DNA of 56,400 nucleotides from the NCBI GenBank assembly GCA_030667525.1, contig DAOUVS010000001.1, forward strand, positions 1 through 56,400, given 5' to 3'. This document shows positions 19,503 to 35,909 of the stretch, one piece after another. How positions within the stretch are numbered: the stretch's first letter is position 1; the number at the start of each line of letters is the position of its first letter. This DNA comes from Candidatus Zixiibacteriota bacterium. GTDB taxonomy: Bacteria; Zixibacteria; MSB-5A5; GN15; PGXB01. The notes beneath the pieces are model-generated. The model was not told the origin of the DNA. It saw nothing but the letters and a program-made list of their open reading frames with translations, and made no database searches. The translations under genes and the position numbers were made by a program.

Positions 19503-20090
19503 ATGAATGGGAAACTAATTTTAATTGCATTGATTATTGGACTTTTTGCTGTTTCAGTCGCCTTTGCCTCTGATGAATACGAGATTGATGTGGTTCATTC
19601 TTCGATTGGGTTTTCTGTCCGCCATTTGATGATTTCAAATGTAACCGGTAACTTTAACGATTTTTCCGGGAAATTGTTATTTGATGAGGACGATCTGACC
19701 AAATCTTCAGTTGAAATCGGTATCAAAACGGCAAGTGTAAACACAAATAACGAGAATCGTGATAATCACCTTCGAGCCGCAGATTTTTTCAATGCCGAGA
19801 AATTTCCTGAAATAACATTCAAAAGCAGCAAAGTTGAGAAATCCGGAGAAACCTTTGTTTTGTTGGGGAGCTTCACGATGCATGGTGTTTCAAAAGAAAT
19901 ATCAATACCTTTTGAGTTTATTGGGAAAATCATGGGGCCGATGGGTAAACAAATATTAGGTTTTGAGGGTAGCACAAAATTAGATCGCAAAGATTTTGGC
20001 ATTACCTGGAATAAAACTCTTGATGAAGGTGGACTGGCTGTCGGCAACGAGGTCAAGATTCAATTAAATATTGAGGCAGTAAAAAAGTAG
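19503..20090 (+). CDS. YceI-family periplasmic (polyisoprenoid-binding-like) protein
   Basis: 195 aa with a signal peptide. It shows the YceI pattern YEIDVVHSSIGFSVRHLMISNVTGNF...F..D...S.V...I...S..T.N..RD.HL....FF. Confidence 0.8.
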   Translation: MNGKLILIALIIGLFAVSVAFASDEYEIDVVHSSIGFSVRHLMISNVTGNFNDFSGKLLFDEDDLTKSSVEIGIKTASVNTNNENRDNHLRAADFFNAEKFPEITFKSSKVEKSGETFVLLGSFTMHGVSKEISIPFEFIGKIMGPMGKQILGFEGSTKLDRKDFGITWNKTLDEGGLAVGNEVKIQLNIEAVKK

Positions 20091-20111
20091 TCTATTATAT
20101 AGCAACTATTA

Positions 20112-20150
20112 AATAACCGCCGGGCTAATTACCCGGCGGTTATTATTTTT
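20112..20150. terminator. Bidirectional rho-independent terminator
   Basis: Stem aataaccgccggg / cccggcggttatt (13 bp) with a 7-nt loop, A-rich before and T-rich after. It sits between convergent genes. Confidence 0.85.
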
Positions 20151-20158
20151 AATTTGGA

Positions 20159-20454
20159 TTATAGCTTTTCTTCTTGAAGATCGGATACTTCGTCTTCGTC
20201 ATATCCTAGCGATTTAAAATCAATGACTCCGTTGGCCGAATGACAATTATTACAGCTTAAAGCGCCTTCCCGACGAATGGCATGACTGATTTCCATTGAA
20301 GCATCTTGCGGAATCCAGCGCGCTTCGACATTTTTCAACTGGCTGGCATCATTATATGCCCCGCCGTTCCACTGATCGGCATCCATGAATGACATGAATT
20401 AAGCAATTACAACAACAATCAATAATATTACTACAATAGTAAGAAAAATTTCAT
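20159..20454 (-). pseudogene. Decayed small membrane-anchored monohaem c-type cytochrome
   Basis: The 78-aa ORF (20159-20395) carries one CNNCH. Directly upstream and in the same frame, after a TAA (20399-20401), lies a TM helix (...IFLTIVVILLIVVVIA). The ATG with a GGGAG SD (20452-20454) is one base out of frame with that helix, across an A5/T5 homopolymer (20444-20448). Confidence 0.45.
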
Positions 20455-20801
20455 ATCGACTCCCACATTATATTTTTTTGCATACCATAAAATATAATCT
20501 AATTGAATTGAAATCAAGAGGAGAATTGAATTTAGCAAGTTTGGAAATTAAGTTACAATTAATCTTCCGGTTGACGTCAATAGCTATTGTCCAGACAGGC
20601 TCAAGGAAACAAAATCGCAATAAAGCCTATTCTGATTTTCAGGCGATTTGAAAGTAGTATTAATATTCAGTTTAATATATGATAAGAAGAGCCAAATTGA
20701 AATGAATCCAATTAAGTAGAGTATTAGATTAAAAAATGATTTTTTGGAAATAATGTGTTGTCTTTTTTGTGAATATTTATTTATATAAACATTAGATGTT
20801 A

Positions 20802-20817
20802 TGTGAAGATTTTCACA
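20802..20817. promoter_or_regulatory. CRP-type palindrome TGTGA-N6-TCACA upstream of the cytochrome operon
   Basis: tgtgaagattttcaca is a perfect match to both CRP half-sites. Its extended form atgtgaa-gatt-ttcacat ends 37 nt upstream of the ATG at 20854. Confidence 0.4.
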
Positions 20818-20853
20818 TTTTAGACAAATTGAAATATAGGTGGGCAAGGTATC

Positions 20854-22758
20854 ATGACTGATATATTAAAAAAAACTAAAATGAGTTTGATTAATTATTT
20901 TGCAGTTTCCATAATTTTATTTTTGCCATATGTGTTATCGGCAAATGAGAATACTGACTGTCTTGAGTGCCATGAGGAAACAGAATCCGAACGAGCGGTT
21001 GGCTATGATGAAAATTTAGCCCTTTCGATTCATCAGGATTTCAATTGTATTGATTGTCATGCCGATCTGGATGGAATTGAATTACCCCATGATGAGCAAT
21101 TAGAAATAGTTGATTGTGGGATATGCCATGAAGATGCAGCAAAAACTTATGTCGCTCATGGCCGGGAATTGGTTGAGGAGTGCGTGGATATTCCCTGTTG
21201 TGTCGAATGTCATGGGAAACATGATATACTGCCCTCAACGGATAAACGCTCATTGACAAATCCATTAAACTTGCCTAAGACATGCGGAAACTGTCATGAG
21301 GATATAGATTTAACAGAAAGACATGAGATATTATACGGCAAAGCGGTTGAAGTTTATCAAAGCAGTGTGCATGGCCGAGCGTCAATGGGTGGAATTTATT
21401 TCGCAGCCACCTGTAATGATTGTCATTCCACCGGTGGCACGGCTCATCGTATTCTGGGACCGGGCGATCCTGAATCGGCAATCAATCATTTTAATATCCC
21501 TAAAACATGCGGCAAATGTCATAAGGCTATTGAACAGGATTTTTGGGAAGGTATCCATGGGAAACTGGTCAAACGTGGCGAAACCGATGCACCAATTTGT
21601 ACTGATTGTCATGGCGAACATGGAATAATTTCTCCGTCTGACCCGAAATCACGGGTCAGTCCGGCGCGAGTGGCAGAAGCGACCTGTTCCCCATGTCATG
21701 AATCGGCCCGCCTTAACGAAAAATATGGTACGCCGACAAGGCGACTGGAATCCTGGGTTGACAGTTATCATGGATTAAAAAGTAAGGCCGGTGATATGAC
21801 AGTTGCCAATTGTGCCTCCTGTCACGGGGCGCATAGAATTTTGCCGCATACCGATTCAACATCGGCTATTTATAGCGACAATCTCATCTCAACCTGCGGC
21901 GAGTGCCATAAAGGAATATCGGCCGAAATGGCATTGACTCCAATCCATAGTGATCCCGGTATATCGCAAACCCCTATCGCGAATATTGTCAGACAGATTT
22001 ACATTATTTTAATTATTGTGACGATTGGCTTAATGGTTATTCATTGGCTGATAGACCTTAGAAGAGAGATTAAAAAAGTAAGGCAAAAACCTCAGATGAC
22101 ACGAATGAATCTAAATGAGGTCTGGCAACATTATCTTTTGATGATATCATTTATTGTTTTGGTTTTAACCGGCTTTTCCTTGAGATTCTCTGAAGCTTAC
22201 TGGGTACAATTGTTATTCGGCTGGGAAGGCGGTTTTGAGCTTCGAGGCATCATTCATCGAATAGCGGCCGTTATTATGATGATATCAACCGTCTGGCATT
22301 TATTATATCTTTTTACCCCAAGAGGCAGACAGTTCTTCAAAGATATGATTCCCAATCGTACGGACTGGAATAACGTCATCCATTTAGTAAGATATAATAT
22401 TGGACTGAAAGACGATAAGCCGCGATTTGGCCGCTTCATGTATGTTGAAAAGATCGAATACTGGGCCCTGATCTGGGGAACAATTGTTATGATCGTGACC
22501 GGACTAATGCTCTGGCTCGATAATTTGGCCATTCTCTGGGTTCCGAAAGGTTTTCTTGATGTTATGCTTGTAATTCATTATTATGAAGCCTGGTTGGCGA
22601 CGCTGGCAATTTTAATTTGGCATATGTATTCAACGATTTTTAATCCGGGTATTTATCCGATGAATCCGGCTTGGATTGATGGAAAAATGCCGGTAGAAAT
22701 GTATAAGCACGAACATCCTGATGATCCGGCGATAAAAGATATGGAAAAAGGGGAATAG
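20854..22758 (+). CDS. Undecahaem c-type cytochrome fused to a membrane cytochrome b (FdnI/HydC-like) domain; CbcL-like quinol oxidoreductase
   Basis: 634 aa with AGGTGG upstream and a signal/anchor segment. I count 11 CxxCH motifs. The C-terminal ~250 aa have 5 predicted TM helices with conserved His residues (WQHYLL, IHRIAAV..VWHLLY, VIHYYEAW...IWHMY). Confidence 0.85.
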   Translation: MTDILKKTKMSLINYFAVSIILFLPYVLSANENTDCLECHEETESERAVGYDENLALSIHQDFNCIDCHADLDGIELPHDEQLEIVDCGICHEDAAKTYVAHGRELVEECVDIPCCVECHGKHDILPSTDKRSLTNPLNLPKTCGNCHEDIDLTERHEILYGKAVEVYQSSVHGRASMGGIYFAATCNDCHSTGGTAHRILGPGDPESAINHFNIPKTCGKCHKAIEQDFWEGIHGKLVKRGETDAPICTDCHGEHGIISPSDPKSRVSPARVAEATCSPCHESARLNEKYGTPTRRLESWVDSYHGLKSKAGDMTVANCASCHGAHRILPHTDSTSAIYSDNLISTCGECHKGISAEMALTPIHSDPGISQTPIANIVRQIYIILIIVTIGLMVIHWLIDLRREIKKVRQKPQMTRMNLNEVWQHYLLMISFIVLVLTGFSLRFSEAYWVQLLFGWEGGFELRGIIHRIAAVIMMISTVWHLLYLFTPRGRQFFKDMIPNRTDWNNVIHLVRYNIGLKDDKPRFGRFMYVEKIEYWALIWGTIVMIVTGLMLWLDNLAILWVPKGFLDVMLVIHYYEAWLATLAILIWHMYSTIFNPGIYPMNPAWIDGKMPVEMYKHEHPDDPAIKDMEKGE

Positions 22759-25542
22759 GTGAAGCTAGCATCCATATTTGGGGTACTACTAATATCGACA
22801 CTGGTAGTATTGCCCTTATCTGTTTTGGCTCAATCGAGTGAGGATTGTTTCGATTGTCATGAGGATGAAGAACTGACCAAGGAGCGAAACGGCCGGGAAA
22901 TTTTTCTCCATATCGATGAAAGTCGTTTTGCCGGTTCCATTCATGGCGAAGCCGATTGTATCGATTGCCATGCCGATCTCGATGGTGTCGAACTTCCCCA
23001 CGACGAAGAACTTGAAACGGTTGATTGCGGTCTTTGCCATGATGATATAGCCGATAAGTATAGTAAGAGCCTTCATGGTCAGGCGGTGGAAAATGGAATA
23101 ACTCTGGCTCCCCGTTGCTGGGACTGTCATGGCGCCCATTATATTGATCCGGTCGATTCGCCCAATTCACAGGTTACCAAATTTAATATTCCATTTGTGT
23201 GCGGTCGATGTCATAAGGAAGGAACTCCTGTTTCCAAAACTTTTGATATTCCTCAGGATTCAATATTAAGTCATTATTCCCAGAGTATTCATGGCGTTGG
23301 ACTGTTTCAACAGGGATTGACCGTTACCGCTGTCTGCAATAATTGCCATACTTCGCATAACGTTTTGCCGCATACCGATCCAAAGTCGAGTATCCATCGT
23401 GATAATGTTGCCGAAACCTGTCAGCAATGTCATGGCCGAATTGAGCAGGTGCATAAAAAAGTAATCAGGGGAGAGTTGTGGGAGAAGGAGCCTCATAAGG
23501 TTCCGGTTTGTGTTGATTGTCATGAACCCCATGAGGCGAGAAAAATATTTTATGCAGAGGGAATAGCCGACAGCGAGTGTCTTAAGTGTCACCAAAACAA
23601 AAATCTCACCGCCCAGCGGGATACCGGTGTTATCTCGATGTATGTTGATTCGATAGAGACTCATAGTTCCATTCATCGTTCGATAGCATGCGCCCAGTGT
23701 CACACTGGCGCCAATCCCAGCCTTGAGCGCTCCTGTGCTTCTGTTGCCAATAAGGTTGATTGTTCTATCTGTCACACAGAAATTGTAGACACGTTTGCAA
23801 CAAGTATGCATGGTAAGCTTGGGAATCGGGGAGACCAGCGAGTTCCTGAATGTACAACATGTCACGGGATTCATGGCATGAAAAGTTTTAAGGACCCGAC
23901 CTCAAAAACATTTCCGACCAAGGTGCCTGAATTGTGCGGTCAATGTCACGGCCCGGAAGGTGTTGCCCTAAAGGAAATGGCCGATGGAGAGGTTGATCCG
24001 GTTACCGGTTATCTCAAAGGCATTCATGGCAAGGGTCTAATAGAAAGCGGTCTGATTGTTACCGCCAAATGTACCGATTGTCATTCGACTCATAATATGC
24101 TCCCCAAAGATGATCCTAACTCATCGGTTCATAAGGATAATATTCCGCAAACCTGTGCCCAGTGCCATGAAGGGATTTTCGAAAAATTTGCCAATAGTGT
24201 GCATTGTGAGGAAACAAGCGATTCTGATTTACCGCTTCCCAAATGTGTTGACTGCCATGATTCGCATTCAATTACCCGAACGGACAAGGCTGGATTTAGA
24301 ACTGAAATTATGGATCAGTGCGGGAAATGTCACCTTGAGGTGACGGAAACATATTTTGAAACGTTTCATGGTAAGGTTTCCAAGCTTGGTTATGGTGCCG
24401 CCGCCAAATGCTTTGACTGTCACGGCTCGCACAATATATTGGCGATCAATAATCCGAATTCGACCTTATCGCGCCAGAATATTGTCAAAACCTGTGGAGC
24501 CTGCCATGAAGGATCACACCGGCAGTTTGCCGGGTATCTGACTCATGCGACGCATCATGATCGCGATAAATATCCAATCCTGTTTTATACTTTCTGGTTT
24601 ATGACAATTCTTCTTGTTGGGACGCTGATTGTATTTGGAACGCATACATTATTGTGGTTGCCGCGCTCATTTAAAATGATGAAAGAGCATCAGAAGATTC
24701 GTAAAAGAAGTGTTGGCCAAAAAGTATATAGTCGTTTTTCGCCGCTTCAGCGCCGTATGCATATTTTAGTTATTATTAGTTTCCTTGGTTTGGCCATTAC
24801 CGGTATGACTCTGAAATTCTCATACCTGGGATGGGCGCAGTGGATATCAGGTATGTTTGGCGGCTTTGAGTCGGCCGGTTATATTCATCGGGTTTGCGCC
24901 ATAATAACATTTGTCTATTTTGGTTTGCATATTTTTGATGTCATCCGAAAGAAAAGGCAATCAGGAAAATCATGGTTTAAATATCTTACCGATGAAGATA
25001 GTATGCTGCCGAATAAAACTGATTTAAAAGAGATTGTTCAGACGCTCAAATGGTTTATCGGGATGGGACGCCGGCCAAGATATGGGCGCTGGACCTATTG
25101 GGAAAAATTTGATTACTTTGCCGTTTTCTGGGGAGTGGCAATTATTGGTTCGACCGGTTTGATGTTATGGTTCCCTGAATTCTTTACACTATTTCTTCCC
25201 GGCTGGATGATTAACGTTGCCACAATTGTTCATTCTGATGAAGCTCTTCTGGCGGTTGCTTTTATATTTACTGTTCATTTCTTTAATACTCATTTTCGTC
25301 CAGATAAATTCCCGATGGACACGGTTATTTTTTCTGGCCGAATAACAGTTGATGAGTTAATGGAAGATAGACCACGCGAATATGAAAAATTAGTCGCCAA
25401 TAAGGAATTGGGCAAACATTTGGTAGACCCGATGCCGGAGCCGTTCCTTAAGGGATTCAAGATTTTTGGTGCAATCGCTTTGACAATTGGTATCATCTTA
25501 ATTTTACTGATCATCTGGGCAGAAATTTTCGGTTATAGATAA
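22759..25542 (+). CDS. 19-haem c-type cytochrome fused to a membrane cytochrome b (FdnI/HydC-like) domain; CbcL-like paralogue
   Basis: 927 aa with a GTG start immediately after the previous stop, and a signal peptide. I count 19 CxxCH motifs. The N-terminus is paralogous to the previous ORF (CIDCHADLDGVELPHDEELETVDCGLCH vs CIDCHADLDGIELPHDEQLEIVDCGICH). The C-terminal multi-TM b-type domain reads RMHILVI..., YIHRVCAI...GLHIF, IVHSDEAL...VHFFNTHF. Confidence 0.85.
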   Translation: MKLASIFGVLLISTLVVLPLSVLAQSSEDCFDCHEDEELTKERNGREIFLHIDESRFAGSIHGEADCIDCHADLDGVELPHDEELETVDCGLCHDDIADKYSKSLHGQAVENGITLAPRCWDCHGAHYIDPVDSPNSQVTKFNIPFVCGRCHKEGTPVSKTFDIPQDSILSHYSQSIHGVGLFQQGLTVTAVCNNCHTSHNVLPHTDPKSSIHRDNVAETCQQCHGRIEQVHKKVIRGELWEKEPHKVPVCVDCHEPHEARKIFYAEGIADSECLKCHQNKNLTAQRDTGVISMYVDSIETHSSIHRSIACAQCHTGANPSLERSCASVANKVDCSICHTEIVDTFATSMHGKLGNRGDQRVPECTTCHGIHGMKSFKDPTSKTFPTKVPELCGQCHGPEGVALKEMADGEVDPVTGYLKGIHGKGLIESGLIVTAKCTDCHSTHNMLPKDDPNSSVHKDNIPQTCAQCHEGIFEKFANSVHCEETSDSDLPLPKCVDCHDSHSITRTDKAGFRTEIMDQCGKCHLEVTETYFETFHGKVSKLGYGAAAKCFDCHGSHNILAINNPNSTLSRQNIVKTCGACHEGSHRQFAGYLTHATHHDRDKYPILFYTFWFMTILLVGTLIVFGTHTLLWLPRSFKMMKEHQKIRKRSVGQKVYSRFSPLQRRMHILVIISFLGLAITGMTLKFSYLGWAQWISGMFGGFESAGYIHRVCAIITFVYFGLHIFDVIRKKRQSGKSWFKYLTDEDSMLPNKTDLKEIVQTLKWFIGMGRRPRYGRWTYWEKFDYFAVFWGVAIIGSTGLMLWFPEFFTLFLPGWMINVATIVHSDEALLAVAFIFTVHFFNTHFRPDKFPMDTVIFSGRITVDELMEDRPREYEKLVANKELGKHLVDPMPEPFLKGFKIFGAIALTIGIILILLIIWAEIFGYR

Positions 25543-25613
25543 CAAACGGGATGAACGAAAGTATATTCCAGATTGAATCGTGAATAAAAAGTTGAGAAAT
25601 GATTCAAAATCTC

Positions 25614-25642
25614 TTGCTATATTTCACGAGGTATGGTAATAT
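25614..25642 (+). promoter_or_regulatory. Possible internal sigma70-like promoter
   Basis: TTGCTA (25614-25619), a 17-nt spacer, then TAATAT (25637-25642), in the 136-nt gap before the ImcH-like gene. Confidence 0.35.
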
Positions 25643-25678
25643 GGATAAAATCAGTATTGTTTTAAAGGAAATGTAACT

Positions 25679-27196
25679 ATGTCATTGAGAGAAATGAAGT
25701 TGCCAAGGCTGGCTTACAATTGGATAAGCGGCATTGGCATTATTATTGCAGTTGTAACCGGCGTCCTGATGACATTTTTATATATAATTGGAATATTTGC
25801 TAAGGTTACCAATCCATATCTCGGCATTTTCTTATATATGGTTCTGCCGCCGGTATTAATAGGCGGTCTTATTTTGGTTCCACTTGGAATGTTAAAGACA
25901 TGGTACAGATTCAAAAAATCCGGAGTGGCATCGTATCCAACCTGGCCATATTTTGATCTGAATAAAAAAAGTCATAGAAACGCCGCATTGCTTTTTATTG
26001 TTGGCTCGATTTTCTTTTTAATAATAAGTGCTGTTGGTGGATATGAGGCCTTTCACTATTCTGAATCAGTTAATTTCTGCGGTAAAACCTGTCACTCGGT
26101 AATGAAACCTGAATTTGTTGCCTATCAAAATTCACCTCACGCACGGGTTTCCTGTGTTAGTTGCCATGTTGGTCCCGGTGCCGATTGGTATGCCAAATCG
26201 AAGATGTCAGGATTGTATCAGGTTTATGCGGTTCTGGCAGACAAATACCCGAGGCCGATACCGACGCCGATTGCTAATCTTCGTCCCGCCCGGGAAACTT
26301 GTGAGCAGTGCCACTGGCCAGAGAAATTTTTTGGCGCTCAACAAAAATCATTCAACCATTATATGTATGATGAAGAAAACAGTTACTGGCCAATTGAAAT
26401 GTTGATAAAGGTTGGCGGCGGTAATCCGGAATCCGGACTTACTTCAGGCATCCATTGGCATACATTTATTGCCAATAAAATTGAATATATTGCTCGTGAT
26501 GAGCGTCATCAGGAAATTCCCTGGGTGCGGGCAACCAATGTAAAAACGGGGTATCAAACTGTTTATCAGGATACAGAAAATCCTCTTACCGAGGAAGAGA
26601 TTGCTGCTGCGGAGCCGCGTGTGTTTGACTGTATGGATTGCCATAATCGTCCGAGTCATATTTATAACTCGCCCGATCATGCCATTGATGAAGCGCTTTA
26701 TACAGAAAAAATTGATGTCACCCTACCGGAGATAAAACGGATTTCAGTTGAAGCAATGGCTGAACTATATGAAACCGAGGAAGCTGCATGGCATGGGATT
26801 GCAAACAGAATCAAAGATTTTTATAGTGAAGAGTATCCTGATATATATAATGAGAAACAGGATGAGATCAACGAAGCGATTTTGGAGGTTCAGGATAAAT
26901 ATCAGAAGAATATTTTCCCCGAAATGAAAGTAAGATGGGAAGAGTATCCTAATAATATCGGACATTTTGGCAATCCTGGCTGCATGCGGTGCCATACCGG
27001 CAATCTTCAGGCTAAGGATGGCTCCATAATAACCAGAGATTGTAATAGCTGCCACACTATACTTGCTCAGGGGAGCGGTGAGAGAAGTATGATGGCTAAA
27101 TCGATGGACGGTTTGGAATTTGTCCATCCTGAAGATATTGATGAAGCCTGGAAAGAGATGGGCTGCCACGAGTGCCATAGCGGAACGCAGCCATAA
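25679..27196 (+). CDS. Inner-membrane NapC/NirT-related heptahaem cytochrome, ImcH-like
   Basis: 505 aa with three N-terminal TM helices. A NapC/NirT-like block follows (FCGKTCHSVMKPEFVAYQNSPHARVSCVSCHVGPGADWYAKSKMSGLYQVY). I count 6 CxxCH plus one CxxxCH (CGKTCH). Confidence 0.75.
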   Translation: MSLREMKLPRLAYNWISGIGIIIAVVTGVLMTFLYIIGIFAKVTNPYLGIFLYMVLPPVLIGGLILVPLGMLKTWYRFKKSGVASYPTWPYFDLNKKSHRNAALLFIVGSIFFLIISAVGGYEAFHYSESVNFCGKTCHSVMKPEFVAYQNSPHARVSCVSCHVGPGADWYAKSKMSGLYQVYAVLADKYPRPIPTPIANLRPARETCEQCHWPEKFFGAQQKSFNHYMYDEENSYWPIEMLIKVGGGNPESGLTSGIHWHTFIANKIEYIARDERHQEIPWVRATNVKTGYQTVYQDTENPLTEEEIAAAEPRVFDCMDCHNRPSHIYNSPDHAIDEALYTEKIDVTLPEIKRISVEAMAELYETEEAAWHGIANRIKDFYSEEYPDIYNEKQDEINEAILEVQDKYQKNIFPEMKVRWEEYPNNIGHFGNPGCMRCHTGNLQAKDGSIITRDCNSCHTILAQGSGERSMMAKSMDGLEFVHPEDIDEAWKEMGCHECHSGTQP

Positions 27197-27258
27197 AAGA
27201 AGTAGACAAGTAAGACATAAATTGTATATATAAAAAGTTAATAATTGTTAAGAAGAAT

Positions 27259-27708
27259 ATGAGCGATAATAATTCCAGACGAAAATTTTTATCTTGGCTA
27301 ACCGGATTAGGGAGCGTGGCATTTCTTGGGTCGATCATTTATCCGGCGTATAAGTTTCTTGTCCCGCCTGAATCGGGCGAGGCGAATGTTTCTCAAGTGA
27401 AACTTCCTTTTACCCGTTCCGAAATTGAAGGAGATGAGAAAAAAGCCAAAACTTTTAAATTCGGCCGGACCCTTGGTTTAATTGTTTTAACCGGTGAAGG
27501 TGAACTCAAAGCAATGGCTGCCACCTGCACTCATTTGGATTGTACCGTGCAGCATCGTCCCGATCTCGGTATTATCTGGTGCTCATGTCATAATGGGCGA
27601 TATGATCTTGATGGTAAGAATATTTCCGGTCCTCCGCCCAAACCTCTTGAACAGTATATTGTCAATGAGATCAAGGGTGAAATATTTGTCTCGAAGGAGA
27701 CAGCCTAA
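27259..27708 (+). CDS. Rieske [2Fe-2S] subunit of a cytochrome bc-type complex
   Basis: 149 aa with the twin-arginine signal SRRKFLSWL. The Rieske boxes are CTHLDC and CSCHNGRYD. Confidence 0.9.
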   Translation: MSDNNSRRKFLSWLTGLGSVAFLGSIIYPAYKFLVPPESGEANVSQVKLPFTRSEIEGDEKKAKTFKFGRTLGLIVLTGEGELKAMAATCTHLDCTVQHRPDLGIIWCSCHNGRYDLDGKNISGPPPKPLEQYIVNEIKGEIFVSKETA

Positions 27709-28823
27709 TGGATGGCTCCCAAAATGGCCTGATAAAAAAAGGGTACCAATGGCTTGATGATCGGCTGCATATAAATTCGCTGGTTGAATATATGAGCAGC
27801 AAAGAGGTTCCCAAGCACAGCCATTCAATTTTCTATTATTTAGGCGGCATTACTCTTTTCTTATTTATTGTTCAGATTATTACCGGTATTCTTTTATTGA
27901 TGTATTACCGTCCCGGCGCCGATTCGGCTTATGAATCAGTAAAATTTATTGTTTCCGAAGTCTCTTTTGGATGGCTGATTCGAGCGATCCATTCATGGTC
28001 GGCAAATCTGATGGTACTGTCTGCCTTCCTGCATATGTTTACCGTCTTTTTTACCCGCGCGTATCGGAAACCGCGGGAGATGACATGGTACACCGGGATG
28101 GGGCTTTTGGCACTTTCGATGACCTTTGGTTTTTCCGGGTATCTTTTACCATGGAATGAATTGGCTTTCTTTGCTACTCGCGTTGGTACGGGTATGGCCG
28201 GTGCAATGCCGGTTATTGGTGATTATTTGATGGTGATCATGCGAGGCGGAGAAGAGGTCACCGGGGCAACTATTGGAAGATTCTTTGGTTTGCACGTTGC
28301 CATTTTACCGCTTTTGACAACAGGTCTGTTGACCTTGCATTTAGTATTTATTCAGCGTCAGGGAATGAGCGAACCGATGAACTGGGCTGGGAAAAAACAG
28401 GAAGACAAAAAATTTATGAAATTTTTCCCAAATTTCATTTATCGCGATGCATTGGTTTGGCTGATTGCATTAAACATATTGGCTCTCTTGGCAGTAATAT
28501 TCCCCGATGGTATCGGTGTGGTGCACTGGCCTTTGGGAGAGAAGGCCGACCCGTTTGCGGCTCCTCCGGCGGTTATTCGACCGGAGTGGTATTTTATGTT
28601 TGCTTTTCAGGCGTTAAAGATGTTGCCGGCTCATATCTGGTTTATTGAAGGCGAACTTTTTGGGATTATTGTTTTTGGAATAGGCGGATTAATCTGGATG
28701 TTGATTCCATTATTGGATCGTCGAGCTAATGAGAATAAACGATCTCCGATGGTCATGGCTTTTGGAACATTTATTGTCCTGTTCATTGTGGTGATGACAA
28801 TTGTGGGATATTTGGTGGAATAG
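27708..28823 (+). CDS. Cytochrome b (fused b6 + subunit IV type)
   Basis: 371 aa with the motifs SFGWLIRAIHSWSANLMV, YLLPWNELAFFAT, FFGLHVAILP and PEWYFMFAFQALK. Its start overlaps the Rieske stop (TAATG). Confidence 0.9.
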   Translation: MDGSQNGLIKKGYQWLDDRLHINSLVEYMSSKEVPKHSHSIFYYLGGITLFLFIVQIITGILLLMYYRPGADSAYESVKFIVSEVSFGWLIRAIHSWSANLMVLSAFLHMFTVFFTRAYRKPREMTWYTGMGLLALSMTFGFSGYLLPWNELAFFATRVGTGMAGAMPVIGDYLMVIMRGGEEVTGATIGRFFGLHVAILPLLTTGLLTLHLVFIQRQGMSEPMNWAGKKQEDKKFMKFFPNFIYRDALVWLIALNILALLAVIFPDGIGVVHWPLGEKADPFAAPPAVIRPEWYFMFAFQALKMLPAHIWFIEGELFGIIVFGIGGLIWMLIPLLDRRANENKRSPMVMAFGTFIVLFIVVMTIVGYLVE

Positions 28824-28835
28824 GGGCAAAATAGA

Positions 28836-30071
28836 ATGATAAAATTTGTAATTATATTTATTGGATTGTTACTGTTTTCAATTAATGGATTTGGCTCAGT
28901 TAACAACTGTATGAGTTGCCACCTTGATTTAGAAGATGAGGGCGGTAGTGCCTCCAAATTTGCAAAAGATATCCATTCGCAAAAAGGTTTAGGCTGTGCC
29001 GATTGTCATGGTGGTGATCCAACTTTGGATGATATGGATGATGTGCGCGATTCCAGGGGATTTCGCGGTGTGCCCAATCATCTGGAAGTCCCTGACTTCT
29101 GTGCGCGCTGTCATTCCGATGCCACCTACATGCATAATCATAATCCATCGTTGCCGGTAGATCAGTTGGCGAAATATAAGACCTCGATTCATGGCCAACT
29201 TTTATTTTCCGCAAAAGATAAAAAAGTAGCCAATTGTGTCTCGTGCCATTCGGTTCATGAAATCGGTAATGGTCAGATGCCTTATTCCAGTACTCATCCG
29301 TCCAATTTGCCGGCCACCTGCGCGAAATGCCACTCCGATAAAGATTATATGGCTGAATACAAGATACCGACCGACCAATTTGAAAAATACAGTTCCTCGG
29401 TTCATGGTCAGGCGCTTCTCGAGCGAGGTGATCTCGGTGCACCGGCCTGTAACGATTGTCATGGAAACCATGGTGCTGCTCCTCCCGGAGTATCCTCACT
29501 GGCCGCGGTATGTGGTGTTTGTCATGCCCTTGAAGCTGAACTATTTGAGAAATCACCGCATGCCGATGCTTTTTTAGAAAATGATTTTCCGATGTGCGAA
29601 ACTTGTCATTCCAATCATGATATTGTAAAACCATCTGATAAAATGATAGGTACTGCCGAATCTTCTCTATGTACCGAGTGCCATGCTGCCGATGATGGCA
29701 CCATCGGGTTGCCAACCGCTGACAGCATCCTGACTTCGTTGAATAATCTTGTTTTGGCACATCTCAATGCTAAACAAAGTCTTGATGAGGCGATATTAAA
29801 AGGAATGATGACAACTAACGAAGAGTTTCTATTAAAAGAAGTTGACCAGTCGCTGATTCAGGCTCGGACTTTGATTCATTCTTTTGATATGGATTCGGTC
29901 GCTCCCAAAGCGATGGAAGGTATTGCTAAAGCTGATACGATCATCGTAAATTCAGCCGGGCTTATCGATGAGTATTATTTCCGGCGCAAAGGTTTGGCGG
30001 TTGCTACTCTGATAATTACATTTCTGGCCTTTATGTTATATCGAAAAATACGGAAAATCGAGCAGAAGTAA
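28836..30071 (+). CDS. Membrane-anchored nonahaem c-type cytochrome (c-subunit of the adjacent Rieske/cyt b complex)
   Basis: 411 aa with an N-terminal signal. I count 9 CxxCH. A C-terminal TM anchor reads GLAVATLIITFLAFMLY. It lies 12 nt after cytochrome b. Confidence 0.8.
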   Translation: MIKFVIIFIGLLLFSINGFGSVNNCMSCHLDLEDEGGSASKFAKDIHSQKGLGCADCHGGDPTLDDMDDVRDSRGFRGVPNHLEVPDFCARCHSDATYMHNHNPSLPVDQLAKYKTSIHGQLLFSAKDKKVANCVSCHSVHEIGNGQMPYSSTHPSNLPATCAKCHSDKDYMAEYKIPTDQFEKYSSSVHGQALLERGDLGAPACNDCHGNHGAAPPGVSSLAAVCGVCHALEAELFEKSPHADAFLENDFPMCETCHSNHDIVKPSDKMIGTAESSLCTECHAADDGTIGLPTADSILTSLNNLVLAHLNAKQSLDEAILKGMMTTNEEFLLKEVDQSLIQARTLIHSFDMDSVAPKAMEGIAKADTIIVNSAGLIDEYYFRRKGLAVATLIITFLAFMLYRKIRKIEQK

Positions 30072-30099
30072 CTCAAATCAAAATTCTCCAAATTGGCAA

Positions 30100-30133
30100 T
30101 AAAAAAAGCTGCCGGGATAAATATCCCGACAGC
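30100..30133 (-). terminator. Rho-independent terminator for the minus-strand barrel gene
   Basis: On the minus strand, stem gctgtcgggat / atcccggcagc (one mismatch) is followed by TTTTTTT (complement of 30101-30107). Confidence 0.7.
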
Positions 30134-30164
30134 CAACCTAAATGCATTAACATAGGAGAGAAAC

Positions 30165-32351
30165 TTAGAATACGAATCTAATGCCGGATCTAATCATAAA
30201 CATTGAACCGGATTCAATTCCATACACATACCCTTCGTTATCTTTCAATTCAGCATACTCACCATCTGCCGTCCAAACCACATCTTTTGAAAGCATATAT
30301 TCAAGTCCTAATGAGAAATTCATCAATTGATAATCGAGGTTTGAATAATCATGCATATGTAGAAATGTGAAATCCTGATGGCCAAGATCGGTGATATCAT
30401 TAATCTCGTCATAAAGACGATCGGTTATATCAGGGAAAATGACCTGATCCATCTCGGCGGTCGATTTATTGTAGCCAACCGTACCATGGAATTTCAGTTT
30501 AGGTGAATAAATATAAGATGTCGTAAGATAAAGATTCTGGGACTTGGTTTCATAATCAGACATGGCATAGGCAGAACCATAATGAACTGCTTGATATAGG
30601 TCGTCGACCGGATCGCTCACGGCGTCCGTATACATATGACCTGCTCAGCCATCGAACAGTGCAATGGCGACTGGTCCCCGCGATTTTTTAAACGCGTAAG
30701 AACCTCCAAACGATACGGCCAAATTCTGATTAAGATTAACATTTAAAGCCAGGCTTGGCTGCATCGAAAAATGACTAACATCAAGGGAATCGAGATCGTC
30801 GTTCTTATCATATTTCGCTTTAAATCCAAAATTCAGATTTACTTTATTATTAGGCCGCCAGCTGGAGGTCACATCAATAACATGTGCCTGCGTCGGAGCC
30901 GTTGTAATATCCTGATAGCGAAGAGCCTCCCTTTGCCAATAATACACAAAGGCTGTACCATCAACCGGATTTAAAACATCGCGGCCTCGTGCCTCAAATA
31001 AACCTTTGGCTGAGGTAAAAGGATTTGAAATACTCTCAAATCGATATTTGATTGATGCCGAATGTCTTAATCCTTTACGGAAGCGGATTTTCGCTTGACC
31101 AAACAGAGTTGTTGTGGCATCGGCATCTTCGGCGGGATAATACTCGCGATCAATCGACCGTAATCCAGCAGTAAAAGATGCTGTCAGTTTTCTGTTCAAT
31201 CTTGAGATAATCTCAACCGAACCTCGCAGATCGACTCTGTTTAGCGAAGAATATCGAGTGAAATCGAAATCCTTTGGCGTACTGGATTGTCCATCCCTAA
31301 AGAGAGGCAGATCAATAAAAGTACTATCAACTTCAAGTTTGGTGACGCTGAATTTTGCAATCAAGCGGGTAAGTTTAGCCAGCGATGTTGAATAAAAAGC
31401 AGAACCGCTAATTGCTGAGCTTGACAAATCGTTGTTTTTGTTGGTCGCCTTACTAAAACCGATTGAACTGCCATAACTGCTATTGCCAGCATCCCCTTTA
31501 TAAGTCACCTTGTGTGATAACTTCTCGGTTTTGGGATATACACCAACTGGCAAGTTCGCATCTTCATAAATCAATCGGGATTCAAATTCAGCGCCGGAAC
31601 CGCCATTGACCGGATGCCTGGCATCGTCAAAATGGCCAAAATTAGCAGGGGCTTTCGATTCAAAAGCGCGATAGTCAAATTGATAACCGACTGTACTTTT
31701 GCCAATATCGGCTTGCAGTCCTGCCATAATCTGATGAGTAATTTTGTCGATGGTGGCCGTGCTGGATGTTATATGGCAACTGAAGCAATGATTGCTGGCA
31801 AGATGTTGTTCTGTTCCGGTCTGTAAAACTGTCCGATGCGCCGCAATTAGTCTGATATTATTTTTCTTAGACAGCCTAAGATTAAAGTTACTTTCAACTT
31901 CTTTGCGGTGCACGTAATAGTCAGTACCCGGATCAAGGATTTCATGGGTCAGTATTTTACCACCACCAGCTTCTCTGGTTTCCAGGTTGGTTAGCAAATC
32001 CTGTTCGGCCTGTTTGTACATCGACCGATATTTAAAACCGGCAGAAAAACCATCGCCGATCCTGCTTGACATATCAGCCACGATATTATTCTCATCACGA
32101 TATTTGCCATTTAATGAGTAAATATGGTTGATGCCGCGTGATAGATAATCAATACTGAATTCAGGCAGGAATTCATCATCGCCATTTCTAAACTCGCCGA
32201 TTTTTTTTGTATAATCGGTAAAATCGGTATAACTGGAACCGACCCAAACCGAATATTTCTCGTCAATCGCATCTTCTTGACCCGATGCAACCATGAAGGT
32301 TAGCGCGATAAGAAGGAGGTTTTGAAGCGTAATTGTTAAAAATCTTTTCAT
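30165..32351 (-). pseudogene. MtrB/PioB-like decahaem-associated outer-membrane barrel, interrupted by one in-frame TGA
   Basis: The 568-aa ORF (30645-32351) and the 156-aa ORF (30165-30635) are in the same frame, separated only by TGA (30645-30647) and 3 codons (...ALFDG*AGHMYTDAV...). Combined, they make ~728 aa with a signal peptide. Beta-strand periodicity runs throughout and the protein ends ...IRSGIRFVF. The gene lies directly downstream of the decahaem gene, as in mtrAB/pioAB/mtoAB. Confidence 0.65.
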
Positions 32352-32360
32352 TATATCCTC

Positions 32361-33320
32361 CTATCTTGTCAGGGCATTGCCTGAAGTTGAAATTGTCTGA
32401 GACGGCATATCACTGCCATGAATCTCAGTATGACATTGAGTACATTTGGTCAATATACCGATTTTCCAGCCATCGACTGTTGTTGTACCTGCTCGTTCCG
32501 GCGCCTGAGGGTTTTCAAAATCGCCATCCCATCCTTCAACTGCGGCATGAAAATGCATCGCATGGCAATTGAGGCAAAGTGCCGGTTCTGTCTGGGTTAA
32601 AAGATTGTCCGCTACCGTTCCGTGCGGCGAATGACAAAGCATACAATCTTCATTAACCGGGGCATGTTCAAAAATGAATGGCCCCTCTTTTTCCGGATGA
32701 CAGCTAAAACATAATTCCCGGGTGGAGCTTTCGTGTGCAAAGGTCGCTTGTCCACCATGCGGATCATGGCAGTCAAGACAGCTCATGTTGCCCTCTTTTA
32801 GGGGATGATGCGATGGCATAAAGGCAGCGGCTTTGACATCAAGATGACATTCGGTGCAAAGATTATTAATCTTTCCGGTTGTCATTGCTTCATACTCAGA
32901 GTGAATGGAATGACAGCTTGAGCAATTCATGTCAGCGGCGTTATGGTCAGTCATCGCCCAATTACTAAAATTGTCAGTATTGTGACAATTTAAACAAGTT
33001 GACTTTCCATCAAACTGATCCTGTTTGGCCGGGTTAATGATCATAGCCGGATCCTGATTTTCGACATGTGCCGATCCCGGGCCATGACACGATTCACACG
33101 AATTTTCTGAGGCCTTACTCAGCAATGTACCATGCATGGTTTTTGCAAAATCGTTTCCCACATCCTCATGGCAATCCAGACATACGCTACTTCCTACAGA
33201 AACAGCGTCTGCCGGTGGCATCTTGGCTTTCACCGATGTCGATGATAAAACGATCATGCAAAAAAACATAACCATGGAGACCCCGAATAGAATTGACTGA
33301 GGTCTTGTTTGTTTTTTCAT
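32361..33320 (-). CDS. Periplasmic decahaem c-type cytochrome, MtrA/MtoA/PioA (DmsE) family
   Basis: 319 aa with a signal peptide. I count 10 CxxCH. The C-terminal CTQCHTEIHGSDMPSQ...GNALTR is typical of the family, and the size matches MtrA (~330 aa). Confidence 0.85.
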   Translation of the reverse strand: MKKQTRPQSILFGVSMVMFFCMIVLSSTSVKAKMPPADAVSVGSSVCLDCHEDVGNDFAKTMHGTLLSKASENSCESCHGPGSAHVENQDPAMIINPAKQDQFDGKSTCLNCHNTDNFSNWAMTDHNAADMNCSSCHSIHSEYEAMTTGKINNLCTECHLDVKAAAFMPSHHPLKEGNMSCLDCHDPHGGQATFAHESSTRELCFSCHPEKEGPFIFEHAPVNEDCMLCHSPHGTVADNLLTQTEPALCLNCHAMHFHAAVEGWDGDFENPQAPERAGTTTVDGWKIGILTKCTQCHTEIHGSDMPSQTISTSGNALTR

Positions 33321-33369
33321 CCTAGTCCTTTTCCCTTGTTTGTGGTTGGTTTAATATATAATTAATATT

Positions 33370-33984
33370 TTATTTTCTGAGTCCGCGTGCGAATATTGGT
33401 ACATTATTTTTCATGATTTCTTCCGGTTTAAAATCACCGCCCTGCATGCCTTTCCAAAGGTTGATGCCGAGAACGCACTCGGTAATCATGCCGGTAAAAC
33501 AATTGGCCGTTATTATAGGATTGATAGGCCTAATCAAATCATTTTTCTTAAGCCGTTCCAATGCTCTTCTGAGAATAGTTATATATGGAAGTCGTAAAGT
33601 ATTAACGATATTTTTTGTCAAGGTATGTTTTTTAAGAGAACAGAAAAGAAGGAGGCGGAATAACTCAGGATTTGATAAATAGATTTGAAATATATGTTTC
33701 GATATGGCAAAAAGAATTTCCTCGATATCATTTAGTTTTTCGATCTCCTTTGAAAGAGAGGAGGTATCGATTTTCTCCTTTAATGCTTTTAGGACTTCTG
33801 AAAACAGTTCTTCTTTTGAGGAGAAATATCTATATAAAGCCGGTTCGGAGATACCGCATGATTTGGCCAGTGAAGCGACCGTCGTTTTTTCATATCCTAA
33901 TTTTGAGAATGATTCAGTTGCTTTTTCAATAATCTGCTTTCGGCGCTCCGCAGAGGCCAATCTTTTTTGTTTTTTCTCAGTCAT
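33370..33984 (-). CDS. TetR/AcrR-family transcriptional regulator
   Basis: 204 aa. The N-terminal HTH reads RRKQIIEKATESFSKLGYEKTTVASLAKSCGISEPALYRYFSSKEELF. Confidence 0.9.
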   Translation of the reverse strand: MTEKKQKRLASAERRKQIIEKATESFSKLGYEKTTVASLAKSCGISEPALYRYFSSKEELFSEVLKALKEKIDTSSLSKEIEKLNDIEEILFAISKHIFQIYLSNPELFRLLLFCSLKKHTLTKNIVNTLRLPYITILRRALERLKKNDLIRPINPIITANCFTGMITECVLGINLWKGMQGGDFKPEEIMKNNVPIFARGLRK

Positions 33985-33994
33985 AATTAATCTT

Positions 33995-34023
33995 TAACTA
34001 CAAGTTAGTTATCGTTCACTAAC
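33995..34023. promoter_or_regulatory. Overlapping palindromes, candidate TetR operator
   Basis: taact-aca-agtta (33995-34007) and gttagt-N8-actaac (34004-34023), 11-40 nt upstream of the tetR start. Confidence 0.3.
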
Positions 34024-34155
34024 ATAATATATTTATAGATTTGTCACAGAATTGTCAAGAAAAAAAAGGGGAGAATGATATATTATTCACATTGGGGAAT
34101 AATTGGATATTTGATATAACTCAGTAACTTATTTTAAGGTATTTAGTTACGGAAA

Positions 34156-34188
34156 TAAAAAAAGGCGCCCGTTAACGGCGCCTTTTTT
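34156..34188. terminator. Bidirectional rho-independent terminator after the tetrahaem gene
   Basis: aaaaaaaa-GGCGCC-cgttaac-GGCGCC-tttttt: a GC stem with an A-run before and a T-run after. Confidence 0.85.
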
Positions 34189-34204
34189 AAAAGATATTGT
34201 TATC

Positions 34205-34714
34205 TTATCCCTTTTTTTCCTCAGCCTTTTTGGCCATTTCATGCGAGCCTTTTGTTTTCATTTTCTCGAAATCGAATTTTTCTTTGGCGCGGAATTTCTC
34301 GGGAACATTGTCATGACAGACTTTACAGGTCTTCTCATCCGGCATGATCAGACCGGCGGCTATTGCTTTCTCATGATCTTCCATTGTTGATTTTTTCTTA
34401 TAATCGGCTCCGGCGCCATGACAGGCTTCACACTGAACACCTTCCAATAATACACCCTTAGCGGTAGTTCCGGTCGTGTGACACTTGACACAATCCTTAT
34501 CCTTTTTCTCTTCGTCTGACAGAAGATCATAGACTTTGGCATGTTTGGACTCGGCCCATGAAGGATGAATGCCGTCTTTTTTGTGGCACATTTTACATTT
34601 CTTTTCGCCAACAAATTCATGTTTGGTTTTTGCTTCTTCGCCTGAAAATGCCAGACTGCCAAAAAGCAAAACGACGGCGAGAAGAGTGGTGAGGATAGTT
34701 ACTTTTTTTAACAT
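34205..34714 (-). CDS. Periplasmic tetrahaem c-type cytochrome
   Basis: 169 aa with a signal peptide. It has 4 CxxCH (CKMCH, CVKCH, CEACH, CKVCH) and a Lys-rich tail. Confidence 0.85.
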   Translation of the reverse strand: MLKKVTILTTLLAVVLLFGSLAFSGEEAKTKHEFVGEKKCKMCHKKDGIHPSWAESKHAKVYDLLSDEEKKDKDCVKCHTTGTTAKGVLLEGVQCEACHGAGADYKKKSTMEDHEKAIAAGLIMPDEKTCKVCHDNVPEKFRAKEKFDFEKMKTKGSHEMAKKAEEKKG

Positions 34715-34812
34715 TGATGAACCTCTTAAATTAATTATATATAATATCTTTATTGTCCTATATTAATTACCATATCATTTATACAAAAAAAAATGTCTTA
34801 TGGCAATTATTA

Positions 34813-34842
34813 TTTTGATTTTATACTACCTTAAAATCAAAA
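34813..34842. promoter_or_regulatory. 11-bp perfect inverted repeat in the divergent cytochrome/crcB intergenic region
   Basis: ttttgatttta-N8-taaaatcaaaa, ~100 nt upstream of the tetrahaem start codon. Confidence 0.3.
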
Positions 34843-35029
34843 ATAATCATCAACAGTTATGGCCATTTTTCTGTATCTTATTGCAAGTTATTGTTGGTCA
34901 GTATATTATAAGCTCTTGGTAAATAAATTTGTTAGATACTATTATTTTATAATAGATTGAAATAATTGTTTGATAGATACTAATACAGAAAAGTAATAAC
35001 ATGATGAATTACAAATTGGATTAATATCG

Positions 35030-35058: not shown

Positions 35059-35064
35059 GTTTTT

Positions 35065-35750: not shown

Positions 35751-35756
35751 ATTTCA

Positions 35757-35885: not shown

Positions 35886-35909
35886 CAAAAGAGAAAATAA
35901 ATTGTTTAA

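Follow-up and report, generated by a model that had tools for sequence, protein, structure and literature searches.

A multihaem cytochrome cluster with outer membrane, periplasmic, and inner membrane parts has been described previously in Zixibacteria. This cluster, from the founding genome of the phylum, RBG-1, was reported to encode homologues of MtrA and MtrB, a PetAB Rieske/cytochrome b complex, two monohaem cytochromes, and several periplasmic or inner membrane multihaem cytochromes, with no extracellular cytochrome, and, given that absence, its authors leaned toward a function in Fe(II) oxidation (Castelle et al. 2013; PMC3903129). An ImcH homologue of RBG-1 was later listed, along with 19-haem CbcL-family proteins, by Zhong & Shi (2018), who found no mtrAB or mtoAB genes adjacent to imcH. 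Here, we describe a cytochrome block of this type at positions 20159 to 34714 of a 56,400-nucleotide stretch of DNA (contig DAOUVS010000001.1, positions 1 to 56,400 of the forward strand; assembly GCA_030667525.1) from a Candidatus Zixiibacteriota bacterium, the whole 56-kb stretch being referred to below as the window.

The individual parts of the block also have described counterparts. Geobacter up-regulates GSU2203 and GSU2204, whose products are known as OmcK and OmcL, on hematite and magnetite (PMC4070692), and OmcKL has been treated as a porin:cytochrome conduit in the sulfate-reducing partners of anaerobic methanotrophic archaea (ANME) (PMC10553843). At the inner membrane, ImcH takes electrons from menaquinol and passes them to periplasmic trihaem cytochromes (bioRxiv 10.1101/2023.05.03.539133), and its homologues are so far known only in electron-exporting organisms (PMC6295460). 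Members of the CbcL/MtrH/MtoC family possess 3 to 23 CX2CH motifs in 416 to 1034 amino acids (aa) and a C-terminal cytochrome b with multiple transmembrane (TM) helices (Zhong & Shi 2018), Geobacter CbcL (GSU0274) itself carrying nine haems in 619 aa. ImcH, CbcL, and Rieske proteins receive no mention in a 2026 preprint on extracellular electron transfer in peat.

A cytochrome block with the parts of a proposed electron conduit

Judged by its gene content (Table 1), the block is likely to represent a respiratory island, organised in three transcription units, with genes for the parts that an extracellular electron transfer (EET) pathway would be expected to have. Eight of its open reading frames (ORFs) contain, by a motif count on their translations, 61 CxxCH motifs and one CxxxCH motif, distributed in order as 1, 11, 19, 6 (plus the single CX3CH), 9, 1, 10, and 4. 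These values agree exactly with the coordinates and motif counts proposed in an earlier reading of the same DNA from its letters alone (referred to here as the original prediction). In residue shuffles of each block protein (1,000 per protein), motifs averaged 0.34 and never exceeded 3, and not a single CxxCH was found in the window's remaining stop-to-stop ORFs of 100 aa or longer, which total 16,654 aa. The top homologues of the block proteins belong to metagenome-assembled genomes of Candidatus Zixiibacteriota.

By its published description, the RBG-1 cluster, likewise from Zixibacteria, agrees with the block in content (PMC3903129); the 2013 account was written before ImcH and CbcL were named and makes no mention of selenocysteine, which is considered in detail below.

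Placement of the ORFs in the Nrf, HAO, MccA, or Otr families had been named in the original prediction as grounds on which it should be abandoned. A profile search of the block ORFs returned NrfH/NrfB matches of 17.9 to 45.6 bits, against cut-offs of 134 to 184, and no match to HAO, MccA, or Otr, while no CxxCK motif is present in the block proteins. An interpretation of these cytochromes as catalytic reductases was, therefore, rejected.

Inner membrane modules of the plus-strand operon

Genes B to G, which lie on the plus strand, are proposed to form an operon specifying three classes of quinone-pool oxidoreductase, the periplasmic haem wires of which would comprise 7, 9, 11, and 19 haems.

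The first class is represented by B and C. The product of B consists of a signal peptide, an 11-haem periplasmic domain, and, with approximately five TM helices downstream of the haem domain, a C-terminal dihaem cytochrome b of the FdnI/HydC type, which scores 45 bits against PF01292 (cut-off, 30.1) and retains all four b-haem histidine ligands when aligned to Escherichia coli FdnI (PDB 1KQF_C). The GTG start codon of C directly abuts the stop codon of B, and the two products are paralogous across the whole cytochrome b domain (residues 33 to 624 of B align with residues 271 to 874 of C; E = 2e-90). The PF01292 score of C falls under the cut-off (26.9 bits), and histidines can be read from its sequence in the corresponding helices. 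Within C, an 8-haem module of approximately 245 aa is tandemly duplicated (residues 60 to 278 versus 304 to 525; 36% identity, E = 7e-46), so that C follows the plan of B with one duplicated 8-haem module, and its 19 motifs are accounted for as 11 plus 8. The spacing of these motifs is identical to that of 19-haem CbcL-family proteins of Ignavibacteria (Zhong & Shi, Table S2), and the haem numbers and lengths of both B and C lie within the ranges of the CbcL/MtrH/MtoC family. While B and C share with Geobacter CbcL the combination of a periplasmic multihaem domain and an FdnI/HydC-type cytochrome b, their 11 and 19 haems, as opposed to nine in GSU0274, identify them as members of the family rather than as CbcL orthologues. 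A PDB sequence search with B returned a weak match to FdnI only.

The second class is represented by D. The ImcH family has been defined by a length of 495 to 519 aa, three N-terminal TM helices, a CX3CH motif after TM3, and six CX2CH motifs (Zhong & Shi 2018; Levar 2014), and D agrees with this definition in length, number of helices (hydropathy peaks at residues 19 to 37, 49 to 67, and 102 to 120), and motif set (CGKTCH at residues 134 to 139, directly after TM3, and CX2CH at 159, 208, 318, 435, 455, and 496). Its motif positions match those of the RBG-1 ImcH homologue (134, 158, 207, 316, 433, and 453; Zhong & Shi, Table S3), and its N-terminal NapC/NirT domain scores 32 bits (cut-off, 24.1). 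D is, furthermore, 46 to 48% identical to proteins of Melioribacter and Draconibacterium loci, the homologues of which Zhong & Shi assign to ImcH. Five residues identified as haem-1 ligands or as part of the quinol site in Geobacter ImcH, namely, E127, H137, K173, Q179, and Y188 (Pimenta et al.), correspond to E129, H139, K175, Q181, and Y190 of D at an offset of +2, which is set by the haem-1 histidine, and these residues are invariant or nearly so among 18 homologues. As read from its sequence, D is, therefore, an ImcH-family heptahaem that shares the architecture and key residues of Geobacter ImcH (GSU3259), including those for His/Gln ligation of haem 1. The only PDB match obtained by sequence search with D was a weak one to NrfH.

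The third class is specified by E, F, and G. E carries a twin-arginine signal/anchor (SRRKFL) and the cluster-binding boxes CTHLDC and CSCHNG, as read from the sequence; its match to the PetC TM anchor is under the cut-off, and its best NCBIfam matches are b6f PetC-like. F displays two histidine pairs, spaced 14 and 15 residues, and its best PDB matches are cytochrome b6 chains (approximately 222 bits), while its highest NCBIfam scores, 251 bits for cytochrome b6 and 221.7 bits for ExtP (cut-off, 290), are both under the respective cut-offs. At the position of the b6 haem-ci cysteine, F carries a tyrosine, as read from its sequence. Together with the Rieske boxes and histidine pairs, the adjacency of the genes, E and F overlapping at position 27708, identifies a Rieske/cytochrome b complex, of which the membrane-anchored G is presumed to be the c subunit. 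The complex assignment is supported by the fact that the E-F-G trio is kept together in other phyla, a G-like gene being located beside the Rieske/cytochrome b pair in 10 of 11 genome loci in which that pair is linked to imcH. The same gene order (Rieske protein, b6-like cytochrome b, multihaem cytochrome c) is encountered in the Geobacter ExtMNOPQS (Cbc6) module and in Rieske/cytochrome b/multihaem complexes, and ExtP is the best-scoring curated equivalog for F after the generic cytochrome b6. The present complex differs in that F remains under the ExtP cut-off and is a fusion of b6 and subunit IV, and in that the c subunit possesses nine haems.

The periplasmic tetrahaem

The product of K, which weakly matches cytochrome c554 (1BVB), is likely to act as a periplasmic carrier. 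Because its gene is followed by a palindromic terminator (Table 1), K is considered a separate, monocistronic transcription unit. Neither K nor G has a close solved relative in the PDB. K also matches, with 70 bits, the C-terminal region (residues 398 to 510 of 519) of the NCBIfam model NF041198, titled 'UshA-like (seleno)protein', which suggests that proteins of that selenoprotein family terminate in a c554-like tetrahaem domain resembling K.

The assignments made in the original prediction for this part of the block, that is, two fusions of multihaem cytochrome c with cytochrome b of the CbcL type, a three-TM NapC/NirT-related heptahaem of the ImcH type, a Rieske/cytochrome b complex with its own 9-haem subunit, and a soluble tetrahaem on the opposite strand, were all borne out by these results.

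Outer membrane module

A second operon on the minus strand encodes a TetR-family regulator (J), a decahaem cytochrome (I), and an outer membrane barrel (H), and the decahaem is presumed to be threaded through the barrel. The presence of a tetR gene and an MtrA/MtoA-like decahaem on this strand had been recognised from the letters and is upheld by the profile matches. I matches the GSU2203 family model NF041028 over its full length (342 bits; cut-off, 325) as well as the DmsE family model TIGR03508 (232.7 bits; cut-off, 192.2), and residues 40 to 307 align with MtrA (6R2Q chain A; E = 4.5e-46).

The barrel exceeds the cut-off of NF041027, a model titled 'GSU2204 family CXXCH-containing (seleno)protein, part 1', the end of which coincides with an in-frame TGA of the H gene. 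It carries a single CxxCH motif (HCFSCH, residues 188 to 193), a selenocysteine at residue 569, and a C-terminal outer membrane protein beta-signal (IRSGIRFVF); H188, C189, C192, and H193 are invariant across 24 homologues. The 728-aa protein has no match to PF11854 or TIGR03509 (MtrB/PioB) at E ≤ 0.01, and a precomputed PF11854 match exists for only 2 of 120 barrel homologues. An AlphaFold2 model of residues 1 to 568 (pLDDT, 76) has MtrB (6R2Q_B) as its top structural match (E = 6.5e-11; TM-score, 0.65), as against TM-scores of 0.50 or lower for TonB-dependent and other barrels. The proposal of an MtrB/PioB-like barrel thus stands with respect to the fold, for which MtrB is closest, and fails with respect to the family, H being an OmcL-type selenoprotein.

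Compared with OmcK and OmcL of Geobacter sulfurreducens, I and H pass both curated family cut-offs, and the barrel shares the CxxCH motif and the in-frame UGA. The OmcKL systems (PMC10553843) likewise consist of a two-gene porin and cytochrome unit with no adjacent periplasmic or outer partner; in contrast to these, the pair in the clade considered here is additionally joined to inner membrane quinol modules. With respect to MtrAB, MtoAB, and PioAB (6R2Q), I is homologous to MtrA, whereas H lacks a match to the MtrB/PioB profiles and has its own haem motif and selenocysteine, and the locus contains neither MtrC nor a CymA-type tetrahaem.

The decahaem-barrel pair is present in all of the longer barrel-centred loci that cover the region, and tetR lies directly upstream of it in 19 of 24 such loci, namely, the present locus and 18 others. 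Longer loci without tetR are L110 and L116, both close members of the family in which no TetR is detectable, and four loci of 24 to 25% identity (L130 to L134), with L098 being cut at its 5′ end. The partners of the resulting tetR-decahaem-barrel core differ between loci and are drawn from K, C, B, D, and E-F-G.

Distribution and rearrangement of the locus

A scan with an ImcH alignment, covering one genome per species, returned more than 599 matches, the best 80 of which span Zixibacteria, Ignavibacteria, Calditrichota, Bacteroidota, and KSB1, in addition to Latescibacteria, Acidobacteria, Verrucomicrobia, and others. Linkage was counted in 38 species-level imcH loci with full 10-kb flanks. 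A B- or C-like (cbcL-like) gene is located within 10 kb of imcH in 23 of these, a K-like tetrahaem gene within the same distance in 19, and a Rieske/cytochrome b pair nearby in 11, while both a cbcL-like gene and the Rieske/cytochrome b pair are near imcH in seven. The 19-haem cbcL, imcH, and tetrahaem genes also occur as a trio in cultured Bacteroidota (Draconibacterium sediminis, Mangrovibacterium, and Maribellus).

In Geobacter, as pointed out in the original prediction, imcH and cbcL are unlinked. The linkage in 23 of 38 genomes indicates that this is a peculiarity of Geobacter, and in the present locus, as in many genomes of the Fibrobacterota-Chlorobiota-Bacteroidota (FCB) group, the imcH and cbcL-like genes are adjacent and apparently co-transcribed. 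Two of the loci retrieved, L077 (WAPZ01000698.1) and L081, contain ImcH-like genes with 47 to 49% identity on contigs binned as a Heimdallarchaeota archaeon and a Syntrophomonadaceae bacterium, respectively; since the L077 contig measures only 4.7 kb, these host assignments probably reflect binning contamination rather than true hosts.

A close relative, L084 (82 to 90% protein identity), has the full gene set in unchanged order, L002 has it with the outer membrane module flipped, and L091 has it permuted, while L099 and L137 harbour a permuted or variant set with no E-F-G within reach. Such recurrence in same, flipped, and permuted order suggests that co-location has been selected for, as opposed to a single arrangement having been inherited. 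Because the RBG-1 cluster has been published (PMC3903129), because imcH and cbcL are frequently linked, and because close relatives possess the same gene set, the claim that no such locus had been described fails, and the block constitutes a further example of a described cluster type. The Zixibacteria loci are exceptions to the statement of Zhong & Shi regarding mtrAB and imcH, although the barrel here is of the OmcL type, which may have fallen outside their search.

The comparison with L084 revealed a rearrangement. Positions 20888 to 34818 of the window align with 7510 to 21373 of L084 at approximately 79% nucleotide identity, the cytochrome block being in opposite orientation, while the flanking two-component genes (window positions 14738 to 19385) are colinear. 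Reversal between colinear flanks indicates that the 14-kb block was inverted as a unit, and at the site occupied by YceI and ORF A in the window, L084 carries ClpB. An extra multihaem cytochrome gene (approximately 505 aa; PF13447), which is not found in the window, lies next to the tetrahaem gene in L002 (14503 to 16023) and L137 (11554 to 13065), and its product may serve the system as an outer or accessory cytochrome.

Proposed electron route and its alternatives

In the proposed pathway, quinol would be oxidised by B, C, D, or the E-F-G complex, the choice being set by the acceptor potential, as it is for ImcH and CbcL in Geobacter. Electrons would then pass through the long haem domains and/or the tetrahaem K to the decahaem inside the barrel and onward to the cell surface, where Fe(III)/Mn(IV) minerals, humics, or a partner cell would serve as acceptors. 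In this scheme, we infer from the genes present which proteins make contact, how the modules divide the range of redox potentials, and which way electrons flow. We agree with the original prediction that direction cannot be read from the sequence and hold a modest preference for outward over inward flow, on the grounds that ImcH homologues are known only from electron exporters (PMC6295460) and that Geobacter ImcH works at low potential, which fits the oxidation of quinol better than the uptake of electrons from Fe(II).

Several observations weigh against this scheme. No extracellular cytochrome of the MtrC/OmcA type is encoded in the 56-kb window, in which CxxCH motifs are confined to the block. 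Rieske/cytochrome b complexes are more characteristic of high-potential chains with oxidases or N-oxide reductases at their end than of the known metal reduction pathways. The OmcL barrel is located within 10 kb of imcH in none of the 38 species genomes, a 3.8-Mb genome (L085) has the tetR-decahaem-barrel unit on its own, and imcH is nearly alone in another Zixibacteria genome (L003); as the modules are also found apart, their co-location is specific to the clade, and they might serve different acceptors.

The strongest competing explanation, which we regard as a credible minority reading, retains the same parts and reverses the flow, such that Fe(II), a mineral, or a syntrophic partner would donate electrons to the conduit. 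From there, periplasmic cytochromes would feed the Rieske/cytochrome b and CbcL-like proteins, which would act as quinone reductases or lead toward an oxidase or reductase encoded elsewhere. An extracellular cytochrome is equally absent from MtoAB and PioAB of Fe(II) oxidisers, the reason why Castelle et al. (2013) preferred Fe(II) oxidation as the role of the RBG-1 cluster; proteins of the CbcL/MtrH/MtoC family adjoin mtoAB in Fe(II) oxidisers; and in sulfate reducers to which ANME pass electrons, expression of the OmcKL conduit is high. These points are countered by the restriction of ImcH homologues, so far, to electron exporters and by the PF13447 cytochrome beside the module in L002 and L137, which could be an outer cytochrome.

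It is improbable, in our estimation, that the block is an island of independent modules rather than one pathway, with the OmcKL-type outer membrane unit merely adjacent. The Rieske/cytochrome b, CbcL-like, and ImcH-like modules would, in that event, feed periplasmic reductases for nitrite, selenite/tellurite, or sulfur compounds. Such independence would accord with the occurrence of each module alone or in other combinations, with the separate terminator of K and the separate regulator of the outer membrane operon, with the closeness of F to ExtP of the Geobacter selenite/tellurite operon (221.7 bits), and with the inversion of the whole block as a unit between relatives. It is harder to reconcile with the joint presence of the same module set in at least four differently arranged loci and with the lack of any catalytic reductase or molybdoenzyme in the block, the proteins of which contain no CxxCK and match Nrf families only far under the cut-offs.

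Recoding of an in-frame UGA in the barrel gene

The TGA within H divides the gene into mechanical ORFs of 568 and 156 aa, a feature missing from the original prediction. It occupies position x of a conserved motif, [LM]FDG-x-[AG]GH, in 36 related loci, in all of which that position is TGA and never a cysteine codon, and seven more loci, down to 24% identity, carry TGA at the aligned position within DG*AAH, AAG, or AGV; the 43 loci together span 24 to 84% protein identity. In all but three of them the reading frame runs for 140 to 160 residues past the TGA, and in nearly all the in-frame continuation ends in an outer membrane beta-signal (…R[ST]G[VIF]xxxF), the exceptions being L084, with a stop after 90 residues, and L089 and L105, with 45 and 38 in-frame residues, respectively. 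All 120 database homologues of the barrel terminate at the UGA position. A profile search for the family among 1.84 billion representatives yielded 393 members, of which few are full length; three distant homologues among these (P0295, P0330, and P0368) have cysteine at the UGA position, and others have neither residue.

Downstream of the UGA, a hairpin resembling a selenocysteine insertion sequence (SECIS), with G/U in its apical loop, is conserved. Its 6-bp stem is 92.7% paired across 32 sequences, as against 23 to 46% when the partner columns are slid, and two of its pairs vary on both sides (CG/GC/UA and AU/GC/UA/CG), a covariation score attained by none of 500 shuffles. The single-sequence fold of this region is not significant (z = −0.85), so that support for the hairpin rests on covariation. 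The GSU2204 family, furthermore, appears in a 2026 selenoproteome review.

Given the retention of UGA in 43 loci, the covarying hairpin, and the cysteine present in three distant homologues, the barrel is, on this comparative sequence evidence, a selenoprotein encoded by one gene with a recoded UGA. Two null results count against it: ARAGORN detected no tRNA of any kind, and hence no tRNA-Sec, in the window, and the window contains no selenocysteine insertion genes. That H is a pseudogene or split gene, with the TGA as a true stop, is extremely improbable and effectively refuted: the two ORFs produced by list-based calling, the public gene calls that all end at the TGA, the thermodynamically ordinary hairpin of this single sequence, and the selenocysteine machinery not seen in the window are outweighed by codon conservation with a conserved continuation, by covariation, by the cysteine homologues, and by a curated NCBIfam selenoprotein model and a review that both cover the family.

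In the predicted model, the haem site is placed on the tip of the longest beta-hairpin of the barrel, and the pattern of short turns and long loops suggests that this tip lies at the extracellular mouth. A tentative and, on the whole, unlikely extension is that the OmcL-type barrel is an active redox component, its haem and selenocysteine forming a surface-facing terminal redox site that replaces an MtrC-type cytochrome.

Flanking genes and noncoding features

The block is bordered on one side by a YceI gene (19503 to 20090) followed by a strong terminator (20112 to 20144), and on the other by crcB and an operon for tryptophan/aromatic amino acids, from 35134 onward. Between ORF A and gene B lie approximately 460 bp of AT-rich noncoding DNA (20396 to 20853). 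ORF A is a doubtful gene. A signal peptide is missing, none of 137 related loci has a counterpart, and a tblastn search against all fetched loci gave a best E value of 0.03, the matches consisting of haem motifs only. Its one family match, which stays under the threshold, is to the C-terminal end of PF11783 (E = 0.008; 16.5 bits; cut-off, 22.1). The ORF is probably what is left of a monohaem cytochrome gene of the PF11783 type at the border of the inverted block.

A region at 14312 to 19323 encodes a 986-aa protein with a receiver domain and a phosphoenolpyruvate-utilising (PPDK_N) domain, followed by an OmpR-type response regulator and then a histidine kinase directly upstream of the block, a flank kept in L084; the two-component genes are possible regulators of the cluster. 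At the far end of the window, C-terminal sorting domains of the type IX secretion system (T9SS) are encoded at 50242 to 53379 and 55625 to 56152, with one gene carrying 14 thrombospondin type 3 repeats, and the region from 50242 to 56152 also encodes a 708-aa protein with an endosialidase-chaperone (Peptidase_S74) domain. The host had been surmised to be a T9SS-bearing, non-proteobacterial lineage, which is confirmed by its membership in Zixibacteria and by the two genes with sorting domains.

An Rfam scan of positions 19000 to 36000 returned only sub-threshold matches resembling small RNAs, which correspond to terminator hairpins, and no SECIS family or riboswitch. No TetR operator palindrome common to the upstream regions of the operons was found, terminators and AT-rich pseudo-palindromes being the only such elements, and a promoter scan (58 sites, against 46.5 ± 7.4 in shuffled sequence) performed no better than chance.

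Table 1. Features of the cytochrome block, by position in the window
Feature	Position	Strand	Description	Evidence
A	20159..20395	−	ORF of 78 aa; doubtful gene	One CxxCH
B	20854..22758	+	CbcL/MtrH/MtoC-family quinol:cytochrome c oxidoreductase, 634 aa	11 CxxCH; PF01292
C	22759..25542	+	Paralogue of B, 927 aa; 19 haems and same cytochrome b type	19 CxxCH
D	25679..27196	+	ImcH-family inner membrane heptahaem, predicted quinol oxidase, 505 aa	3 TM; one CX3CH; six CX2CH
E	27259..27708	+	Rieske [2Fe-2S] subunit	PF00355, 42.7 bits
F	27708..28823	+	Cytochrome b; b6-like N-terminal half fused to subunit-IV-like C-terminal half	PF00033, 177.9 bits; PF00032, 44.2 bits
G	28836..30071	+	9-haem c-type cytochrome; signal peptide and C-terminal TM anchor	9 CxxCH; TM 387-405
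Terminator of tetR-decahaem-barrel operon	30107..30134	−	Intrinsic terminator	12-bp stem, then T-run
H	30165..32351	−	Outer membrane barrel, GSU2204 (OmcL) family, 728 aa	NF041027, 529.4 bits (cut-off, 350)
SECIS-like hairpin	30603..30625 (approximate)	−	Apical loop CGUGA	Approximately 20-42 nt 3′ of UGA
In-frame UGA	30645..30647	−	Selenocysteine codon in conserved motif FDG-U-AGH	TGA in 43/43 related loci
I	32361..33320	−	Decahaem, GSU2203 (OmcK) subfamily of DmsE/MtrA/MtoA, 319 aa	10 CxxCH
J	33370..33984	−	TetR-family regulator; first gene of operon	PF00440, 60.5 bits
Terminator of K	34158..34188	−	Palindromic terminator	Arms AAAAAAGGCGCC and GGCGCCTTTTTT, 100% complementary
K	34205..34714	−	Soluble periplasmic tetrahaem, c554-like; signal peptide	4 CxxCH; PF13435, 38.1 bits

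Implications for Zixibacteria and related phyla

Zixibacteria and their neighbours in the FCB group are abundant in sediments and aquifers, and, to our knowledge, no Zixibacteria bearing this cluster have been cultured. The locus provides a clean and complete parts list for possible mineral respiration or electron exchange with partners by these bacteria. The scattered arrangement of imcH and cbcL in Geobacter is not general, the quinol modules being usually neighbours in these phyla, and an operon combining ImcH, two CbcL paralogues, and a Rieske/cytochrome b complex might, on a reading as tentative and unlikely as that of the active barrel, represent a potential-sensing 'gearbox' common to FCB-group bacteria. 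The pair formed by the MtrA-like decahaem and the OmcL-like barrel is a stable unit, usually located after tetR, which is combined with different inner membrane modules from genome to genome. Because automated gene calls split the barrel at the UGA, the family is systematically mis-sized in databases, and surveys of electron transfer genes in metagenomes will under-detect or mis-size it.

While none of these results overturns current understanding, the most interesting feature of the locus is the haem- and selenocysteine-bearing barrel, which is conserved across the clade. If this barrel were indeed an active redox component, extracellular electron transfer of this type would be selenium dependent.

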